A program made the translations under genes and the position numbers. The notes under the pieces are model-generated. The model saw only the letters and a list, made by a program, of their open reading frames with translations. It had not been told where the DNA came from and searched no databases. A DNA stretch of 64,000 nt, taken from contig CAJTLY010000007.1 in assembly GCA_910577095.1 (NCBI GenBank), forward strand, positions 34,317 through 98,316. The letters are read 5' to 3'. The DNA is from an uncultured Alphaproteobacteria bacterium. Its GTDB lineage: Bacteria > Pseudomonadota > Alphaproteobacteria > RF32 > CAG-239. The stretch's first letter is position 1. Each line of letters opens with the position of its first letter. Of the stretch, positions 15,905-21,552 are shown piece after piece.

Positions 15905-16219
15905 ATGGGAACCATATTAAAATATATCTTTTACGTTGCACTTATCTTGGTCATCTATCTGGTCGCCAGAGGTATCTACGAAGGCCGAATTACCGAAGAC
16001 ACCACGGTTAAAGAAGTCGGCAGCAACATTGCCGACGGCACGGAACAACTGGTCAACGAAACCAAACGTGCAATTGACGACAACAGCAGCGATGCCGCAC
16101 GGGTTGCCGATCAGGCACCGGTTACCCGTCCGGCCGCTCCCGACTCCCAACGCGTTGCCGCGGCTGCCGATTCACAGCGTGCCGCCGCCCGTCGCCCGGC
16201 TCAACAACCGGTCGACTGA
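15905..16219 (+). CDS. small membrane-anchored hypothetical protein
   Basis: 104 aa with GAGGA RBS 7 nt upstream and one N-terminal TM. The C-terminus has a short repeat (A)ADSQR(V/A)AA. Confidence 0.5.
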   Translation: MGTILKYIFYVALILVIYLVARGIYEGRITEDTTVKEVGSNIADGTEQLVNETKRAIDDNSSDAARVADQAPVTRPAAPDSQRVAAAADSQRAAARRPAQQPVD

Positions 16220-16244
16220 CAACACTTCCCCCTATCCGTCCTCC

Positions 16245-16277
16245 GGCTCTCCGTCAAATACGGAGAGCCTTTTTCTT
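16245..16277 (+). terminator. Rho-independent terminator
   Basis: ggctctccg-tcaaata-cggagagcc hairpin followed by a T-run. Confidence 0.75.
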
Positions 16278-16447
16278 ATGCTGATCCCGTTTCCCTATCG
16301 CTTTTTGACAAATATTCGTTAACAAACCTTTCAAATTTATACAAAAAGTTGTGGATAAAAGTTAATAAACCATTTACTTTTAGGTGTATTTATTATATTG
16401 TTCGCGCGTAGCTTGAATCAGGTCCGTCCTGTTTCAGGCTTTTTTTG

Positions 16448-16482
16448 ACCGCCATAGCCGTGTGCTATGGTGGTTTTGTTTT
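16448..16482 (+). terminator. strong terminator-like hairpin only ~27 nt upstream of the 16509 start codon
   Basis: 11-bp stem accgccatagc/gctatggtggt with a 5-nt loop, then TTTGTTTT. Lies downstream of an already terminated gene. Confidence 0.5.
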
Positions 16483-16508
16483 AAACGTATAACTAAGGAT
16501 AAAATAAA

Positions 16509-17831
16509 ATGACTAACAAATTGCAAAACACTAACGATAATCGCCACGGCAGACACAACCGCTTTAACGTCGCGGCGCCGGTGCTTGCCCGACAGATTGA
16601 GGCTTTGTCAGACCCCGGACGGGAACCGCTCCGGCAGATACAAGACCGGCTCAACCGGCTGGGATACGGCGGTTTGGACAACAGCCTGATCGCCGGAATC
16701 AAACAGTTTCAGAAAGATCACGGCCTGCAGGCGGACGGTGTGATCAAAGCCGGCGGCGAAACCCTCCGCAAACTCAATCAACTCAGCAGTGACCCGCAAA
16801 ATTTCCGGCCGATTGCAACAGCGTTGCCCGATACTTCGGGTCTGAGCCTGCGTGAAGAACTGGAAGGCCGCTTTAACGGAACCCTTCCGATCGTCCGAAC
16901 CGATCCGCAAACCGGTTTTCGCTCCGCTTATTATTTCGGCCGCGAGAACGAAACCACGCCGCTTTCTTCCGACCGGGCAGCTCTGTCCATGTTGCCGCAA
17001 GCGCTGACGAAGAAAGATATTAACGCCAAGCCGCACAATTATTTCCGACTGCCGGAAGATTGTCACAATCCTCGTCATCTCTTGCGGATGCACCTGAGAA
17101 GGCTAAATCGGGGTGGCCGGCGTACTGGTTCATTTCAACCCGACCATACCGGTTACAGCATGATCTCCACTTGTGACGACGGCCGCCAGTTCATCAATAT
17201 GCAGGATTTGGAAAGAACTGATGATGGTAAGATCATCTTTAACCACAGTTATACACCGGCACGGAATTACCTCACCGACCACGGCATCGTCACCTGGAGT
17301 ACCGAAATACCGGAAGAGATGAAAGCTCATTACGATAACATGACAGATTATCTCAATGCCAAAAATGCTTCTCACCGCATTGTGGCATTGGGAAATGAGG
17401 CGGAACGCATTTATAATCTGATGGGATTTGAAAACGAGCTGATAAACGCAGTACCGGATCAACAAAAACCGGAATACGGCCTTTCCTTTGATAACTGCAA
17501 TACTTCCACTCAATGGAAAAAAGATAACCACCTTTCCAATTTTGAAGGTGATATAGAAGATATGATGGGCAATCATGTTGCCGGAGAAGGATGGGAAATG
17601 TGGAGAAATGTTAACGACCATTATCAAATTGTCGATGCGGCCAGAAATGCCTTGCTGGCACACAACCCGAAAATTGATTTTGCCGAGATCTGCAATATTC
17701 ATTGGAGTGATATCAACCAACCGCAGGGCGAAATGATGCGTTTTTCCGACAATCAGCGCAACTATATCGTTGATAAAAATCCCAACTATAGGGGTACATA
17801 TCAAGTTATGGTACAGTCGCGGCGGAAATAA
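16509..17831 (+). CDS. hypothetical modular protein with N-terminal peptidoglycan-binding (PG_binding_1-like) domain
   Basis: 440-aa uninterrupted ORF. LGYGGLDNSLIAGIKQFQKDHGLQADGVIKAGGETLRKL matches the PG-binding repeat pattern. The C-terminal ~220 aa are unrecognised and lower in G+C. Confidence 0.7.
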   Translation: MTNKLQNTNDNRHGRHNRFNVAAPVLARQIEALSDPGREPLRQIQDRLNRLGYGGLDNSLIAGIKQFQKDHGLQADGVIKAGGETLRKLNQLSSDPQNFRPIATALPDTSGLSLREELEGRFNGTLPIVRTDPQTGFRSAYYFGRENETTPLSSDRAALSMLPQALTKKDINAKPHNYFRLPEDCHNPRHLLRMHLRRLNRGGRRTGSFQPDHTGYSMISTCDDGRQFINMQDLERTDDGKIIFNHSYTPARNYLTDHGIVTWSTEIPEEMKAHYDNMTDYLNAKNASHRIVALGNEAERIYNLMGFENELINAVPDQQKPEYGLSFDNCNTSTQWKKDNHLSNFEGDIEDMMGNHVAGEGWEMWRNVNDHYQIVDAARNALLAHNPKIDFAEICNIHWSDINQPQGEMMRFSDNQRNYIVDKNPNYRGTYQVMVQSRRK

Positions 17832-17840
17832 TCCGGGCTT

Positions 17841-18362
17841 TTAATTACGCAAAAAAGCAAAATAAGTGGAAAAAAGGGTAAAATAAAAAATTATCCTCAG
17901 CACTTGGGTGGTTCGGGTCGGCTGATGGTCCAAGAAACAGTCTTTGGGCAAACATAAGCCGACCATTCCCCAAAAAGTGGAAGCAAAGAAAATATACATG
18001 GAACCCGTTTCCAACTGATGACGAAAAGGAATAAGAGAATATATTATGCTCATAATAAAAAACACAACTGTCATAGATAAGGATATCCATGTTGCCCGTG
18101 CAAGAAATTGTCGCTTATTGTAACTGAAAACAGCAAAAATGTACGCTAAAAATGCTATAATGTATGGTGTCCCAAACAATAGCTTTTCAAATCCATAACA
18201 CGCCATCTGTTGGGGGGTGTGAGAATCATTCGGATCTGCAAGCATCAACAGATAAAATAATCCCGCTAAAATCGCGCCGATAAAATACAGCGCCCTCACC
18301 ACCTCAAACAATATCCGGCCGTATTTCAAAAATTTCTCATTCTTTAAAACTTGCAACATCAT
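17841..18362 (-). CDS. 5-TM paralog, array copy 1
   Basis: 173 aa, N-terminus MMLQVLKNEKFLKYGRILFEVVRALYFIG. Five hydrophobic segments and the conserved CLPKDCFLDHQPTRTTQ block. Confidence 0.75.
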   Translation of the reverse strand: MMLQVLKNEKFLKYGRILFEVVRALYFIGAILAGLFYLLMLADPNDSHTPQQMACYGFEKLLFGTPYIIAFLAYIFAVFSYNKRQFLARATWISLSMTVVFFIMSIIYSLIPFRHQLETGSMYIFFASTFWGMVGLCLPKDCFLDHQPTRTTQVLRIIFYFTLFSTYFAFLRN

Positions 18363-18473
18363 TCTTCCTCCATTTCTAAAACTCTAGGCTAAATGAAAAA
18401 TGATGTAAAGCTAAATTGTAAAATCCTCCGTCCTCAACAATCGTCCCCTCTCACGGCTAAATAATCGGAGATT
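18363..18473 (-). promoter_or_regulatory. conserved 111-nt leader of array copy 1
   Basis: Near-identical to the three other leaders. Contains GGAGGA just before ATGATG and a twice-repeated ATTTAGC motif. Confidence 0.55.
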
Positions 18474-18529
18474 TTAACCAAAGATATAATAAAGCAAAAA
18501 AGCACAGTAAGTGAATAAAAGGATAAAAA
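18474..18529 (-). pseudogene. relic of the 3' end of a further array paralog
   Basis: ttaaccaaagatataataaagcaaaaaagca... aligns with the last ~55 nt (stop included) of copies 3 and 4, then the homology breaks. Confidence 0.65.
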
Positions 18530-18581
18530 TTCTAACTATACAGATGTATATCAGGTTATGGGACAGCCAAAAGCCGAATAA
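18522..18581 (+). pseudogene. relic of the 3' end of a second copy of the 16509-17831 gene
   Basis: Ungapped alignment to 17772-17831. Translates in frame as DKNSNYTDVYQVMGQPKAE* versus DKNPNYRGTYQVMVQSRRK*, with the stop at the same position. Confidence 0.65.
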
Positions 18582-19107
18582 TTCGGTATACGGGGAAGGA
18601 TAAAAAAGAAATTGATACAATAAAATAAAAAATTATCCTCAGCATTTGGGTGGTTCGGGTCGGCTGATGGTTCAAGAAACAGTCTTTGGGTAAACATAAG
18701 CCGACCATTCCCCAAAAAGTGGAAGCATAAAAGATATATAAGGAGGTCAACGCAAAAATATCGTTATCTATTCGAGGAAAATTATAAGGTATATATTGAG
18801 ACAAAAAAACGATTAGAATTGAAAAAACAGATATCCATGTCACACGCTTTATAAATTGTCTCTTATTATAACTGAAAACGGCAAAGATGTACGCTACAAA
18901 TGCGATCGCCGGAGGAAAACTAAGTAAATCTTTCAGTCCGCTCAAGGCGGCTTGTAATATCGTTTGTCTACCGTTCGGATCTGCAAGCACAACTGTATAG
19001 AATAATCCGACTATAGTCGCACCGATAAAATACAGCGCTCTCACCACCTCAAACAATATTCGACCGTATTTCAAAAATTTCTCATTCTTCAAAACTTGCA
19101 ACATCAT
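18556..19107 (-). CDS. 5-TM paralog, array copy 2
   Basis: 183 aa. Same N-terminus and conserved blocks as the others. Its C-terminus differs because the ORF reads into the plus-strand relic. Confidence 0.7.
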   Translation of the reverse strand: MMLQVLKNEKFLKYGRILFEVVRALYFIGATIVGLFYTVVLADPNGRQTILQAALSGLKDLLSFPPAIAFVAYIFAVFSYNKRQFIKRVTWISVFSILIVFLSQYIPYNFPRIDNDIFALTSLYIFYASTFWGMVGLCLPKDCFLNHQPTRTTQMLRIIFYFIVSISFLSFPVYRIIRLLAVP

Positions 19108-19218
19108 TCTTCCTCCATTCCTAAAACTTTAGGCTAAATGAAAAATGATGTAAAGCTAAATTGTAAAATCCTCCGTCCTCAACAATCGTCCCCTCTCACG
19201 GCTAAATAATCGGAGATT
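19108..19218 (-). promoter_or_regulatory. conserved 111-nt leader of array copy 2
   Basis: Near-identical to the other leaders. Confidence 0.55.
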
Positions 19219-19746
19219 TTAGCCAAAGATATAATAAAGCAAAAAAGCAAAATAAGTGGAAAAAAGGATAAAATAAAAAATTATCCTCAGCACTTGGGTG
19301 GTTCGGGTCGGCTGATGGTCCAAGAAACAGTCTTTGGGCAAACATAAGCCGACCATTCCCCAAAAAGTGGAAGCATAAAAGATAAATACAGACCCTATAT
19401 ATAACAGACCATTGAAAGGAAGGTAAAAAAGCCTCATGTTCGTTATCAAATAAATAGCTCCCCCACTAAGTGATATCCAAGTTGCTCGTTTAATAAATTG
19501 CTCCTTGCTATAACTGAAAACGGCAAAAATGTATGCCGCAAACGCTATTGTCAGAGGAAAACCAAGTAAATCTTTCAGTCCCTCCCATGCGGCTTGTAAT
19601 ATACTCTGTCTGCCATTTGTATCCGAAACCACCAGATAAAACAATCCGATTAAAACTCCGCCGATAAAATACAGCGCCCTCACCACCTCAAACAATATCC
19701 GGCCGTATTTCAAAAATTTCTCATTCTTCAAAACTTGCAACATCAT
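19219..19746 (-). CDS. 5-TM paralog, array copy 3
   Basis: 175 aa. Same N-terminus and conserved blocks, ending LLYYIFG. Confidence 0.75.
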   Translation of the reverse strand: MMLQVLKNEKFLKYGRILFEVVRALYFIGGVLIGLFYLVVSDTNGRQSILQAAWEGLKDLLGFPLTIAFAAYIFAVFSYSKEQFIKRATWISLSGGAIYLITNMRLFYLPFNGLLYIGSVFIFYASTFWGMVGLCLPKDCFLDHQPTRTTQVLRIIFYFILFSTYFAFLLYYIFG

Positions 19747-19857
19747 TCTTCCTCCATTTCTAAAACTCTAGGCTAAATGAAAAATGATGTAAAGCTAAAT
19801 TGTAAAATCCTCCGTCCTCAACAATCGTCCCCTCTCACGGCTAAATAATCGGAGATT
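19747..19857 (-). promoter_or_regulatory. conserved 111-nt leader of array copy 3
   Basis: Near-identical to the other leaders. Confidence 0.55.
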
Positions 19858-20388
19858 TTAGCCAAAGATATAATAAAGCAAAAAAGCAAAATAAGTGGAA
19901 AAAAGGGTAAAATAAAAAATTATCCTCAGCACTTGGGTGGTTCGGGTCGGCTGATGGTCCAAGAAACAGTGTTTCGGCAAACATAAGCCGACTATCCCCC
20001 AAAAAGTGGAAGCAAAGAAAATATACATGGAACCCACGACTACCAGATCATTAAAAGGAACATGAAAAAATCTCATCTGAGTTATAATAGAAATAGCCAA
20101 CGTCAACAACGATATCCATGTCACACGTTTTATGAATTGTCTCTTATTATAACTGAAAACGGCAAAGATGTACGCTACAAATGCGATCGCCGGAGGAATG
20201 GTAAGTAAATCTTTCAGTCCGCTCAAGGCGGCTTGTAATATCGTTTGTCTACCGTTCGGATCTGCAAGCACAACTGTATAGAATAATCCGACTATAGTCG
20301 CGCCGATAAAATACAGCGCTCTCACTACCTCAAACAATATTCGGTCGTATTTCAAAAATTTCTCATTCTTTAAAACTTGCAACATCAT
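19858..20388 (-). CDS. 5-TM paralog, array copy 4
   Basis: 176 aa. The N-terminal half is nearly identical to copy 2 and the C-terminal end to copies 1 and 3. Confidence 0.75.
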   Translation of the reverse strand: MMLQVLKNEKFLKYDRILFEVVRALYFIGATIVGLFYTVVLADPNGRQTILQAALSGLKDLLTIPPAIAFVAYIFAVFSYNKRQFIKRVTWISLLTLAISIITQMRFFHVPFNDLVVVGSMYIFFASTFWGIVGLCLPKHCFLDHQPTRTTQVLRIIFYFTLFSTYFAFLLYYIFG

Positions 20389-20499
20389 TCTTCCTCCATT
20401 CCTAAAACTTTAGGCTAAATGAAAAATGATGTAAAGCTAAATTGTAAAATCCTCCGTCCTCAACAATCGTCCCCTCTCACGGCTAAATAATCGGAGATT
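20389..20499 (-). promoter_or_regulatory. conserved 111-nt leader of array copy 4
   Basis: Near-identical to the other leaders. Confidence 0.55.
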
Positions 20500-20523
20500 T
20501 TAACCAAAGATATAATAAAGCAA
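20500..20523 (-). pseudogene. truncated 3'-end relic of another paralog at the array edge
   Basis: ttaaccaaagatataataaagcaa matches the terminal codons plus stop of copies 3 and 4. Homology ends at about 20523. Confidence 0.55.
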
Positions 20524-20566
20524 GTGGAATTCTTCGTATTCGCAGCGGGCACGGAATTTTCGAGAC

Positions 20567-20596
20567 ACAAAAAAACTCCCCAAAATCGGGGAGTTT
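20567..20596 (-). terminator. Rho-independent terminator after the TPR gene
   Basis: On the minus strand, aaactcccc-gatttt-ggggagttt followed by a T-run. Separates the TPR gene from the array. Confidence 0.7.
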
Positions 20597-20613
20597 CAAA
20601 ATTCGGATCAAGC

Positions 20614-21552
20614 CTATTCTTCTTCGGCAGGCACCAAATCGGGCAGCATTCCGGTAGCCTTTTTGCGTTTAAGTTTGCTGACAAACTTAATCGAACGCTG
20701 GGCATCCCACTTTTTCTTGCCTTCTTCGATCTGGAAGATCTGTTTATAAATCTCTATCGCCTGATCAAACTCGGAAAGCTTGGTCAAACAACTGGCCAGA
20801 CCGTCATAGAGCTTGTGATGATAACGGTTTTCGTTAATCATCTGCGCTTTTTTATAACACTTAAGAGCATCGTTAAATTTCATCATTTTCTGATAAACAA
20901 AACCGATACTGATCCATGCCTGAATTTCGCGACTGTTGATATTCAGAATTTTGGTAAAGCATTTCAAAGCAGAATTGTTATCCCCCATCAGCTGATATGT
21001 TACACCGATACCGTTCCACGCTTTGATGTTCGACTTATCGTATGTCAGAACCTTTTTGAAGAACGAAATCGCACGTTCAAACTGTTTCAGCTTTTGCAGC
21101 GTTACCGCAATGCTGAGCAGTGTCTGGGTGTGTTTGTTGTCAATTTTCATTGCCTGTTCCAACACATCCAACGCTTCTTTATACAAATACATATGCTGCA
21201 GGGCAATTGCTTTGCCGTTCAGAGCTTCGAGCGACGTCGGGTCATTTACCACCGCCTGATCGAACTGGGCAATGGCATCTTTATACAGGCCGCGCATAGA
21301 CAGCGTCACGCCTTTGTTATTAATGACTTCAACCGATTGCGGATTGAGTTCCAGCGCCTTGTCAAAACACTCGACGGCTTCGGTATATCTGCTCAGTTTC
21401 TGCAGGGCAAACCCCTTAGAATTAAGAGCTTTCCAAGATTGCGGCTGTTCTTTAATTGCTTCGTCAAACTGGGCAATTGCTTCTTTGTACATACCTTGGT
21501 CCAACAGCTCCTGACCTCTCCGGTATGCGTTATTTTCATTTGTCTTAACCAT
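20614..21552 (-). CDS. tetratricopeptide (TPR) repeat protein
   Basis: 312 aa with about 8 tandem 34-aa TPR units (W/Y..G.....G.Y..A...F..A...P pattern). Confidence 0.85.
   Translation of the reverse strand: MVKTNENNAYRRGQELLDQGMYKEAIAQFDEAIKEQPQSWKALNSKGFALQKLSRYTEAVECFDKALELNPQSVEVINNKGVTLSMRGLYKDAIAQFDQAVVNDPTSLEALNGKAIALQHMYLYKEALDVLEQAMKIDNKHTQTLLSIAVTLQKLKQFERAISFFKKVLTYDKSNIKAWNGIGVTYQLMGDNNSALKCFTKILNINSREIQAWISIGFVYQKMMKFNDALKCYKKAQMINENRYHHKLYDGLASCLTKLSEFDQAIEIYKQIFQIEEGKKKWDAQRSIKFVSKLKRKKATGMLPDLVPAEEE

Follow-up and report, generated by a model that had tools for sequence, protein, structure and literature searches.

A recombination scar joins the tails of a lost membrane-gene copy and a diverged 440-aa-gene copy in a membrane-gene array of an uncultured alphaproteobacterium

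How did the 3' ends of two different genes come to lie back to back between two copies of a tandem membrane-gene array? The window, that is, the whole stretch of 64,000 nucleotides analysed here (contig CAJTLY010000007.1 of assembly GCA_910577095.1), carries a gene for a 440-aa protein, which converges on an array of membrane-protein genes (Table 1). Through comparisons with shuffled sequences, related strains and independent assemblies, we found that a 114-base segment between copies 1 and 2 is a genuine recombination scar, joining the tail of a lost membrane-gene copy with the tail of a diverged copy of the 440-aa gene. The original prediction, made from the letters of the window, had described both pieces and read them as the remains of two collapsed modules, each a plus-strand gene converging on a membrane paralog.

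Table 1. Coordinates of the 440-aa gene, the scar and the membrane-gene array in the window.
Feature	Position	Strand	Description
Resident 440-aa gene	16509-17831	+	ORF; PG_binding_1, linker and C-domain
T1	17772-17831	+	Last 19 codons and stop of the resident 440-aa gene; reference for relic 2
Copy 1	17841-18362	-	173 aa; tail-to-tail with the 440-aa gene
Upstream region of copy 1	18363-18450	-	97-100% identity in all four units; promoter-like site
Promoter-like TTTACA-17-TAGAGT	18409-18381		Upstream of copy 1; consensus match only
Older 26-nt relic	18451-18476	+	440-aa gene tail and spacer (TCACGGCTAAATAATCGGAGATTTTA)
Exact copies of the 26-nt relic	19196-19221, 19835-19860, 20477-20502		Four exact copies in all
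Relic 1	18474-18528	-	Last 55 nt (17 codons and stop) of a lost copy-1-like paralog, cX
Junction microhomology GATAAAA	18522-18528		Common to paralog tail and 440-aa gene tail; three-way comparison
Relic 2 (T2)	18522-18581	+	Last 19 codons and stop of a diverged second copy of the 440-aa gene
Spacer and diverged 3' coding segment, module 2	18582-18622	-	Encodes ...IVSISFLSFPVYR of copy 2
Copy 2	18556-19107	-	183 aa; last 26 nt antisense to relic 2
Copy 3	19219-19746	-	175 aa
Copy 4	19858-20388	-	176 aa
Terminal partial unit	20500-20523	-	Right array end; further truncated paralog tail (TTAACCAAAGATATAATAAAGCAA)

The right relic, T2, aligned with the end of the resident gene, T1, without gaps and with 42 of 60 positions identical. 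As the original prediction had described, the two share their frame and stop column, and their translations are DKNPNYRGTYQVMVQSRRK for T1 and DKNSNYTDVYQVMGQPKAE for T2. When 18363-18640 was shuffled 2000 times with dinucleotides preserved, the top score averaged 27.0 (sd 1.5) and reached a maximum of 34, so the observed score lies about 10 sd above the shuffles and the proposed shuffling check upheld the match. When both strands of the window were scanned, T2 was the sole other match to T1 at 36/60 or better; the shuffles and this uniqueness exclude a chance A-rich match. The T1/T2 match also constitutes family D7. The left edge of T2 is sharp, with an identity of only 4-6 of 30 positions directly upstream of 18522. 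The differences between T1 and T2 are confined to 10 of the 20 codons (clustering p=0.01). We obtained a dS of about 1.05, a dN of 0.31 and a dN/dS of 0.29, the last based on 19 codons with the differences falling 6/6/6 by codon position. The dS between T1 and the L020 tail, a comparison of live alleles, was 1.07, and the divergence between T1 and T2 appears to be like that between live alleles.

The left relic matched the 3' ends of copy 3 (50/55) and copy 4 (49/55), compared with a mean of 28 and a maximum of 33 in the shuffle control, and its minus-strand translation is IFILLFTYCAFLLYYIFG*. This bears out the predicted stop-proximal end of a paralog resembling copies 3 and 4, and an intact relative was found in L017, a metagenomic scaffold of 1.5 kb and the one source from which intact cX is known. 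There, the diagnostic bases of the relic (GCACAGTAAGTGAATAAAAGG) are continuous with an intact 176-aa gene, whose 3' end differs from relic 1 at 1 of 55 positions and whose product ends ILLFTYCAFLLYYIFG. The body of this gene is copy-1-like (97%), and its likeness to copy 2 is 83%. Because relic 1 differs from copies 3 and 4 of the same genome at 5-6 of 55 positions, it has not been homogenised within the genome. These comparisons indicate that relic 1 is the tail of a fifth paralog, which is still intact in another strain.

The two relics differ in how far they have diverged from their counterparts, relic 1 at 1/55 positions from the intact gene and T2 at 18/60 from T1 (Fisher's exact p=2.6e-5). 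By these counts, T2 had already diverged from the resident tail by about 30% at the time the junction formed. At least the 3' part of the gene therefore existed in a second, diverged copy, and a one-step duplication of the resident gene is ruled out.

The microhomology at the junction had been given as 9 nt (gataaaaat), but the actual overlap is the 7 nt of GATAAAA. We compared the junction across five independent assemblies from different samples. The results showed that the stretch 18440-18640 is 100% identical in four of them (L001, L002, L003 and L023), that the fifth (L024) has 99% identity over 18450-18640, and that the junction is fixed in every copy-2-bearing strain sampled. An assembly artefact, by collapse or chimera of repeats of about 85% identity, would be in keeping with the way in which short-read metagenome assemblies break inside the array, for example in L004, which stops at 18472, and in L002, which has a 100-N gap after copy 2. 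With four other assemblies agreeing exactly and a fifth at 99%, a misassembly is excluded, which upholds the prediction on this point. The tail reading into the relic is also present in 8/8 members of the copy-2 cluster, and an artefact can hardly be credited.

In the centre of the membrane paralogs lies a hypervariable block (40-60% identity), flanked by blocks of 93-100% identity. In hydropathy plots, copy 1 exceeds the cut-off in 3 segments, of which one was reported twice, and the other copies do so in 3-4; the aligned set suggests that the proteins probably have up to 5 helices. The same promoter-like site, a consensus match only, lies upstream of each copy. Rfam gave no RNA family within 16-21 kb, and the conserved upstream block thus corresponds to no known riboswitch or leader; Tandem Repeats Finder gave no match, the array period being above the program limit. 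Copies 2 and 4 are 100% identical over 18856-19002 versus 20137-20283, which indicates gene conversion.

Copy 2, whose protein is 63% identical to that of copy 1, ends in ...SFLSFPVYRIIRLLAVP, as had been predicted; the further proposal that this aberrant C-terminus was made by reading into the relic did not hold. The stop codon (18556-18558) is 28 nt beyond the junction on its right side, and the overlap with the relic is limited to the last 26 nt, so the C-terminus was not made by the junction, and 8/8 members of the copy-2 protein cluster have it in common. The odd ending is native to the module of copy 2. T2, spacer and copy 2 are colinear with T1, spacer and copy 1; within this order, 18582-18622 is colinear with 17832-17882 of module 1 and has an identity of about 37-43% to the other units. 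The scar itself has no function, and it is coding only in so far as copy 2 draws its final 8 codons and stop from the antisense of the last 26 nt, an arrangement that predates the junction.

An older and shorter trace of the 440-aa gene lies at the array boundaries. The 26-nt relic matches T1 and spacer at 22/28 positions, a score reached by 15 of 2000 shuffles, and the homologous boundary repeats are much clearer in L020, L007 and L014. Because every unit boundary in the window and in related genomes bears only this 26-nt relic of the gene tail, tail-only capture is the rule at this locus, and the routine duplication unit is a membrane gene plus the gene tail. To call the whole module the unit of duplication, as had been done, is therefore too strong.

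Taken together, the likely explanation is a microhomology scar in a tandem array, combined with the effector/immunity reading discussed below. The scar arose by illegitimate recombination within the tandem membrane-gene array beside the 440-aa gene, with the two relics joined at the 7-nt GATAAAA, and with T2 and copy 2 forming one module. The body of cX and everything but the tail of the T2 gene may have been lost in one of two ways: in a single deletion mediated by microhomology, or when the locus exchanged unequally with an allele of different build. It is fairly probable that T2 once belonged to a gene of full length, whether here or in the genome of a donor. An intact second 440-aa gene, for which related genomes were to be checked, was found in no related contig or protein database: full-length T2-type genes were absent from the related contigs, the 7 protein clusters and an exhaustive profile search, the T2-type ending was absent from all 7 homolog clusters, and neither an exact-pattern scan nor a relative scan of viral contigs gave an intact T2-type gene. 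Of the predicted two modules with later collapse, the diverged second 3' part and the colinearity therefore stand, but a full-length second gene was not found.

Three other origins of the scar were weighed. An old duplication of the tail only (at least 60 nt plus a membrane gene), which diverged in place, was later fused to the cX tail and was never full-length, would fit the 26-nt tail relic at all unit boundaries in the window and in L020, L007 and L014, the norm at this locus of breakpoints just inside the 3' end of the 440-aa gene, and the absence of an intact T2-type gene from every database searched. However, the codon clustering (p=0.01) and the dN/dS of 0.29 suggest divergence while translated, the dS of about 1.05 between T2 and T1 is at the level of live alleles and about 4-7 times the genomic background, and routine exchange at 26-nt repeats cannot yield a 60-nt relic. 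We regard this origin as rather unlikely.

A single tandem duplication of T1 and copy 1, by microhomology-mediated unequal exchange between the GATAAAA at 17772 and that in the next paralog, would make the two modules recent duplicates. The microhomology is present at both sites and the parts are in exactly the expected order. This origin is nevertheless strongly disfavoured and very improbable, since both halves of the junction would be of the same age, yet they differ at 1/55 and 18/60 positions (p=2.6e-5); moreover, the 3' segment of copy 2 is merely 37-43% identical to the other copies, and its protein is 63% identical to that of copy 1. We think it equally far-fetched that a 94-nt stretch (18529-18622) was inserted between ATAAAA repeats in the 3' end of an otherwise intact paralog, with relic 1 as the displaced end of copy 2. 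ATAAAA does flank the 94-nt stretch on both sides, and removal of the stretch would restore a normal paralog tail. However, ATAAAA is trivial where the sequence is so rich in A, the tail and spacer of module 1 run colinear with the stretch, and the body of the L017 gene with the relic 1 tail resembles copy 1 (97%) rather than copy 2 (83%).

What the locus encodes was approached through the resident protein and its relatives. The 440-aa protein has an N-terminal PG_binding_1 domain (aa 39-89, Pfam 2e-8, the sole Pfam match), a linker that ends in YYFGREN (about aa 148) and a C-domain of about 290 aa, which was assigned to no family. It has no hydrophobic segment (maximum KD19 0.4), and no signal peptide or known secretion/trafficking domain was found by hydropathy, Pfam and NCBIfam. 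The 15 called genes beside the locus in L001 include no secretion system and no two-partner secretion genes, and an NCBIfam search gave nothing further. The homolog family is tiny, with 7 clusters from 5.8 billion sequences. A first C-domain model from 5 sequences (pLDDT 57) was too poor for use; a second model from 11 sequences (pLDDT 86) is mixed alpha/beta and had no match in PDB or BFVD. The C-domain has invariant His and Asn-Cys-Asn-Thr residues; in the 440-aa protein, invariant His residues lie at aa 195 and 213 and an invariant Cys at aa 330. The order of invariant His...His...Asn-Cys gave the idea of a permuted NlpC/P60 or LRAT-like hydrolase, which was rejected on finding no Pfam match to E 10, no PDB sequence match and no fold match. 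Remote homologs of the C-domain form the N-terminus of RTX proteins, a class known for export by type I secretion; the window protein has no RTX repeats. The neighbours of the 440-aa gene are housekeeping genes (Mla, LemA, MoxR and UvrD), with no prophage. Between the window and L020, the 440-aa gene has a dS of 0.77 and a dN of 0.17, compared with 0.15-0.26 and 0-0.03 in the flanking genes, a synonymous divergence about 3-5 times the background.

Related strains showed how the locus is rebuilt. In the L010 type, aa 1-148 are kept (P0006, 91% identity), and the C-domain is replaced in frame after YYFGREN by a two-gene phage cassette, which comprises a homolog of a 151-aa protein and a small ORF (about 40 aa) that has a single transmembrane segment, and comes from a phage terminase-portal gap. 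This is the one alternative C-domain seen. A tail relic of 42 codons, displaced by the swap, persists behind the cassette together with an orphan membrane gene, so that sister strains provide an independent precedent for a displaced tail relic with a membrane gene. In the syntenic loci L007 and L020, the C-domain gene has a membrane gene behind it in convergent orientation, and the same pairing occurs in L008 in a different chromosomal context. A homolog, P0007, directly follows a phage portal gene; in L009, the sequence after the portal-adjacent homolog suggests the same convergent pairing, and a neighbouring protein combines Ntox44, LysM and MuF domains. In L007, the effector gene is frameshifted and the membrane gene is intact, and across strains the membrane genes number 1, 2 or 4. 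The effector of L018 has an alternative variable patch (about aa 322-372), yet is paired with the same copy-1 type, so there is no simple toxin-immunity covariation; covariation of the effector patch with the adjacent membrane gene fails in this one available case.

A toxin-immunity reading of the locus is plausible; the in-frame C-domain swap in sister strains, the raised synonymous divergence and the convergent genes for membrane proteins with 4-5 helices speak for it. We somewhat favour the view that the 440-aa protein is a polymorphic antibacterial effector and that the membrane proteins are its immunity proteins, a putative role in keeping with the pairing conserved in several contexts, the hyper-divergent alleles, the varying copy number and the membrane gene kept beside a broken or replaced partner. 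The effector would consist of a constant PG-binding and linker module with an exchangeable C-domain, and each immunity gene would be expressed from its own opposite-strand promoter, as with pore-forming colicins. The array and its relics may then serve as a store of immunity variants, which grew through unequal crossing-over at the 26-nt effector-tail repeats and through exchange between alleles. More tentatively, and as a joint proposal, the locus may represent a hitherto undescribed polymorphic effector-immunity system, harboured by uncultured Alphaproteobacteria of the human gut ('Azospirillum sp.' UMGS149-type MAGs), in which the effector swaps C-domains with phage head-module cargo genes, one of these domains with a confidently predicted fold unmatched among solved and viral structures, in which arrays of convergent 4-5-helix membrane genes expand, contract and capture foreign modules at the 26-nt repeats, and in which T2 would be the last trace of a third effector allele class, now found intact nowhere.

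The genes might instead encode no toxin-immunity pair, but a phage-derived cell-wall enzyme (endolysin-like or virion-associated) with holin-like or envelope factors, and the relics would then reflect array turnover only. The family matches of the 440-aa protein are PG_binding_1 and the PG-binding parts of endolysin PHROGs only, it has no secretion signal, a phage portal gene neighbours one homolog, and a terminase-portal gap is the source of the swapped-in cassette. However, holins are not organised as convergent arrays of membrane genes with 4-5 helices, each with a promoter-like site, RTX proteins, a class known to be exported, begin with the same C-domain core, and the hyper-divergence, membrane-gene retention and copy-number variation fit immunity genes. 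We consider this alternative unlikely.

The scar alone is genome archaeology, and its value is that of a dated marker. It shows that the array merged modules from effector alleles that had diverged beforehand, that immunity-type genes outlive their partner genes, and that pieces of effector tails serve as recombination substrate for array growth. This draws attention to a pair of proteins that lack a family assignment, may include a new fold and behave in the manner of a toxin-immunity system. They come from a gut lineage that is common but uncultured, and the locus differs sharply between close genomes whose flanking genes are 2-8% different in nucleotide sequence. If the reading is true, a new class would be added to the known effectors, and strains of this lineage could be typed at the locus.

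The original prediction had likened the pieces to the orphan modules that are a hallmark of Rhs/CDI loci, and this proved to be an analogy only: VENN, DPxGL and the YD and haemagglutinin repeats are absent, the relic has 19 codons, and the genes are convergent. CdiA has haemagglutinin-type repeats, a CdiB partner and a VENN motif where its CT begins, and the YD/RHS core of Rhs toxins ends in PxxxxDPxGL. Pfam and motif scans of the 440-aa protein found no CdiA/CdiB domain or VENN, there was no RHS/YD Pfam match, and DPxGL was absent; the only DPxGL-like string, PIVRTDPQTGF (aa 127-137), has one extra residue and lies about 10 residues before the swap point. The locus is not a CDI or Rhs locus. 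CDI/Rhs orphans keep the whole toxin domain from VENN or DPxGL on and can be reloaded onto the main gene, and their immunity genes are co-directional and encode small soluble proteins (Poole et al. 2011, PMC3150448). As in those systems, a full-length gene is followed here by an array of immunity-type genes with toxin-gene fragments between them, copy number and content differ among strains, the fragments have no translation starts and the immunity genes are still expressible, and a C-terminal domain is exchanged at a fixed boundary (in L010). Unlike in those systems, the surviving toxin-gene piece is only 19 codons (42 in L010) of a C-domain of about 290 aa, and the immunity-type genes encode convergent membrane proteins.

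The immunity proteins of pore-forming colicins are small inner-membrane proteins with several helices. As with these colicins, the immunity-type gene is convergent, has its own promoter-like site and encodes a product with 3-4 hydrophobic segments. Unlike in colicins, whose channel domain is a helical bundle with a hydrophobic hairpin, the C-domain is mixed alpha/beta with no such hairpin (maximum 19-residue hydropathy 0.4) and no Pfam colicin domain, and the locus is chromosomal, has no lysis gene and carries its immunity-type genes in a tandem array. The constant N-terminal module and replaced C-domain of the broad polymorphic toxins (Zhang et al. 2012, PMC3482391) are found here in L010 (P0006); as to their export route, no signal or trafficking domain was found, nor secretion genes among the 15 genes in L001. 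Three features recall the MuF phage-head toxins (Zhang et al. 2012, PMC3482391), namely P0007 after a portal gene, the L010 cassette from a terminase-portal gap and the L009 neighbour with Ntox44, LysM and MuF domains, whereas the window protein has no MuF domain and its locus lies among housekeeping genes, not in a prophage. Like tandem arrays under concerted evolution, the array has unit ends of 93-100% identity around a variable central block, gene-conversion tracts, short direct boundary repeats and a strain-variable copy number. In contrast to such arrays, its boundary repeats are pieces of the neighbouring convergent gene, and one boundary carries a longer, older and diverged piece.

We compared the two gene remnants that the original prediction had placed back to back at 18474-18587 with the genes around them, and both were confirmed. 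In an ungapped comparison, relic 2 matched the tail of the resident 440-aa gene at 42/60 positions; the best scores in 2000 dinucleotide shuffles of 18363-18640 averaged 27.0 (sd 1.5) and never exceeded 34. The two tails agree in frame and stop column (DKNPNYRGTYQVMVQSRRK versus DKNSNYTDVYQVMGQPKAE, each followed by the stop), no other site in the window matched the resident tail at 36/60 or more, and a repeat search of the window returned 17772-17816 and 18522-18566 as a repeat family of their own (80%). The left edge of relic 2 is sharp, because identity with the resident region falls to 4-6/30 upstream of 18522. Relic 1, whose minus-strand translation is IFILLFTYCAFLLYYIFG followed by a stop, matched the 3' ends of copy 3 at 50/55 and copy 4 at 49/55 (shuffle maximum 33). 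The relics overlap in GATAAAA, the sole stretch that the tail of the paralog has in common with that of the 440-aa gene, which gives a microhomology of 7 nt rather than the 9 nt first claimed. The stop of copy 2 lies 28 nt right of the junction, so copy 2 was not altered by it; its C-terminus is native to its own module and was not, as had been proposed, made by reading into the relic.

Coordinates of the genes, relics and repeats (window positions unless a contig is named)
Feature	Position	Strand	Remark
440-aa gene	16509-17831	+	precedes four minus-strand paralogs of 173-183 aa
Resident tail	17772-17831	+	end of the 440-aa gene
Copy 1	17841-18362	-	membrane paralog
Relic 1	18474-18528	-	tail of lost copy-1-like paralog
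Relic 2	18522-18581	+	second 440-aa gene tail
Relic overlap	18522-18528		GATAAAA
Copy 2	18556-19107	-	membrane paralog
Copy 3	19219-19746	-	membrane paralog
Copy 4	19858-20388	-	membrane paralog
Partial unit	20477-20523		right end of array
Exact 26-mer of window	18451-18476, 19196-19221, 19835-19860, 20477-20502		all four unit boundaries
26-nt repeat, L020	7299, 7931, 8562
26-nt repeat, L007	8816, 9448
Swapped cassette, L010	6353-6960
Phage cassette, L025	5001-5560

An assembly artefact, which the original prediction had allowed for as misassembled repeats, is ruled out, as the junction stretch recurs in other assemblies: 18440-18640 is 100% identical in four contigs (L001, L002, L003, L023), and 18450-18640 is 99% identical in L024. 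L001 and L003 match 16200-20700 at 99.6-99.7%, L002 matches the same stretch up to 19118, followed by a 100-N scaffold gap, and L004 ends at window position 18472. The exact 440-aa protein is present on many contigs, and the copy-2 protein cluster has the same tail in 8/8 members.

The lost fifth paralog is real and has an intact counterpart in L017, a 1.5-kb scaffold from a separate sample with tandem copy-1-like genes. L017 is 98.3% identical to window 17842-18528 and past ...GCACAGTAAGTGAATAAAAGGATAAAA runs directly into an intact gene body; its product P0011 ends in ILLFTYCAFLLYYIFG, an ending found in no other protein of the cluster. Relic 1 has 1/55 differences to the L017 gene, as against 5-6/55 to copies 3 and 4, which share its genome, and is therefore the ortholog of the L017 gene and free of local homogenisation. 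The intact fifth paralog is known from this one short scaffold, for which an assembler chimera is unlikely because unique SNPs lie no more than 20 nt from the critical bases.

Relic 2 belongs to the module with copy 2. The segment 18582-18622 (spacer and 3' coding segment of copy 2) is colinear with 17832-17882 of module 1 and shares only ~37-43% identity with the other units; the 120 nt beyond 18622 are 83-100% identical in all units. The halves of the junction differ in divergence, with 1/55 changes on the left versus the intact relative and, against the resident tail, 18/60 on the right (p=2.6e-5, Fisher's exact test). Since one event formed both, relic 2 had already diverged when the junction arose, and on this difference we reject a microhomology-mediated duplication of the resident tail in a single step. 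The changes are confined to 10/20 codons (p=0.01 under uniform placement). The Nei-Gojobori method applied to the 19 codons gave dS ~1.05, dN 0.31 and dN/dS 0.29, similar to the dS of 1.07 between the resident tail and the live allele of L020, a close relative in which the 440-aa allele is intact and two membrane genes are present. These values point to divergence as coding sequence, in a very small sample whose differences per codon position are 6/6/6. Against the tails of L005, L010, L007 and L009, relic 2 scored 42/60, 43/60, 39/60 and 34/60, and on these scores it is not nearer to any known allele than to the tail in the window.

In L020, the 3'-terminal 26 nt of the gene, TATGGTACGGTCACGGCGAAGATGAT, were found at two more places, at the boundary between the membrane genes (3 mismatches) and past the upstream region of the last gene (2 mismatches), with spacings of 632 and 631 nt. 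The repeat also flanks the single membrane gene in L007, L011 and L015 and lies on both sides of the membrane gene in L014; every membrane-gene unit is flanked by it, single-copy loci included. The window counterpart, TCACGGCTAAATAATCGGAGATTTTA, is more decayed (22/28 versus resident tail plus spacer, reached by 15/2000 shuffles), and the repeat search gave unit spacings of 745, 639 and 642 nt. With tail repeats at the unit boundaries, a routine duplication therefore comprises the 26-nt gene tail, spacer, membrane gene and upstream region, so that the proposal of a whole duplicated module gives way to a membrane gene with only the tail of its partner. Membrane-gene copy number among strains is 1, 2 or 4, owing to unequal crossing-over at the tail repeats. 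The repeat may simply be a substrate for this process, or it could be a trace of the first arrival of the membrane-gene cassette.

At 60 nt, relic 2 exceeds a 26-nt repeat exchange and thus requires a separate source with more of the gene. It probably came from a full-length ancestor gene, in the locus or in a donor allele. An old capture of the tail only would also have left such a relic, and no protein ending like relic 2 was found in seven clusters (5.8 billion sequences), an exhaustive profile search or viral contigs; given the length of the relic, we regard this capture as rather unlikely. Of the predicted second copy of the 440-aa gene, the diverged copy itself is real, and a full second module is putative.

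Each of the membrane paralogs has 3-4 hydrophobic segments that exceed the cut-off and probably up to 5 helices; no family assignment was found for them. The same promoter-like site lies upstream of each copy. The copies show concerted evolution at both ends and a hypervariable centre (18736-18830 and the equivalent blocks of copies 1, 3 and 4), where they share only 40-60% nucleotide identity (flanks 93-100%). Over ~150 nt (18856-19002), copy 2 matches copy 4 at 100%, a sign of recent gene conversion. The G+C content of the array (17841-20388) is 37.6%, that of the window 48% and that of the 440-aa gene 49%.

The 440-aa protein contains PG_binding_1 at aa 39-89, no other domain in Pfam, NCBIfam or PHROGs, and no hydrophobic segment. 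Its family is tiny, with 'uncultured Azospirillum sp. UMGS149' as the sole GTDB species representative. The C-domain core (aa 180-440, window 17046-17828) was modelled confidently by AlphaFold with remote relatives added (pLDDT 86, pTM 0.84), and Foldseek gave no significant match to the model in PDB (best E 0.05, TM 0.16) or BFVD. The C-domain profile detected remote relatives with the same core N-terminal in RTX-repeat proteins, and the invariant residues (His, Arg, His-Thr-Gly-Tyr, Asn-Cys-Asn-Thr) suggest an enzyme of unrecognised fold. Between window 16509-17831 and L020 6001-7323, the gene has dS 0.77 and dN 0.17, versus dS 0.15-0.26 and dN 0-0.03 for the flanking LemA, TPM, TPR and MoxR genes; by these rates it is a hyper-divergent island. 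Its alleles come in two forms at a mosaic variable patch (~aa 322-372). The scar itself is without function, and its interest lies in the light it sheds on this uncharacterised, fast-evolving gene pair.

Four related loci (L010, L012, L013, L016) keep aa 1-148 (91% identity) and then switch in frame to a sequence homologous to a 151-aa phage protein (64-72% identity), encoded between terminase and portal in L025-L028. A small transmembrane ORF, homologous in L010 and phage, follows in the cassette, and beyond the cassette come 42 codons left over from the original tail and a single membrane gene. The ORF has ~40 aa, one transmembrane segment and a hairpin, and the homolog of the 151-aa protein is itself split by a frameshift. 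In L008, a different chromosomal context, a convergent membrane gene comes after a C-domain gene; in L009 the C-domain gene stands after a phage portal gene and before a short stretch resembling a membrane-gene 3' end, where the contig ends, so that the pairing appears convergent as in L008. In L007 a frameshift interrupts the 440-aa gene at the domain boundary and the membrane gene is intact; from this locus, the candidate immunity gene seems to outlive the candidate effector gene. The split (L007 7510-8840, also L011 and L015) falls at aa 149/151, the boundary of the L010 swap, and L020 holds the same allele class unsplit.

Because of the domain swap, conserved pairing, hyper-divergence, membrane gene outliving the effector and colicin-like arrangement, we lean towards a polymorphic toxin-immunity-like system with putative toxicity and immunity. 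Against it count the lack of a recognisable export route for the 440-aa protein, of an activity assignable to the C-domain by family or fold searches, and of more than one alternative C-domain, as well as a different effector patch beside the same copy 1 in L018. We consider a phage-derived cell-wall or lysis function unlikely.

PG-binding domains within polymorphic toxins have been noted already (PMC3482391), and in P0023, a 445-aa protein, Ntox44 occurs with PG_binding_1 and the same linker motif (...FNGTVPVTKTNPDTGFKSNYY) at the C-terminus; the PG-binding and linker module thus also stands behind an N-terminal toxin domain. Orphans of CDI/Rhs loci retain a complete toxin domain, starting at the VENN or DPxGL motif, next to an immunity gene that runs in the same direction, and such orphans can be transferred back to the main gene (PMC3150448). 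In contrast, the relic here has 19 codons, its partner gene is convergent, and VENN, DPxGL, YD repeats and haemagglutinin repeats are absent, which places the locus outside the CDI, Rhs, MuF and colicin families; the Rhs/CDI link of the original prediction holds as a reasonable toxin-immunity analogy and not as membership. As in ionophoric colicins, whose immunity gene is convergent with its own promoter (PMC9517006), the candidate immunity gene is convergent and has its own promoter-like site. By analogy, the locus would function as polymorphic toxin loci do, with a stockpile of immunity genes.
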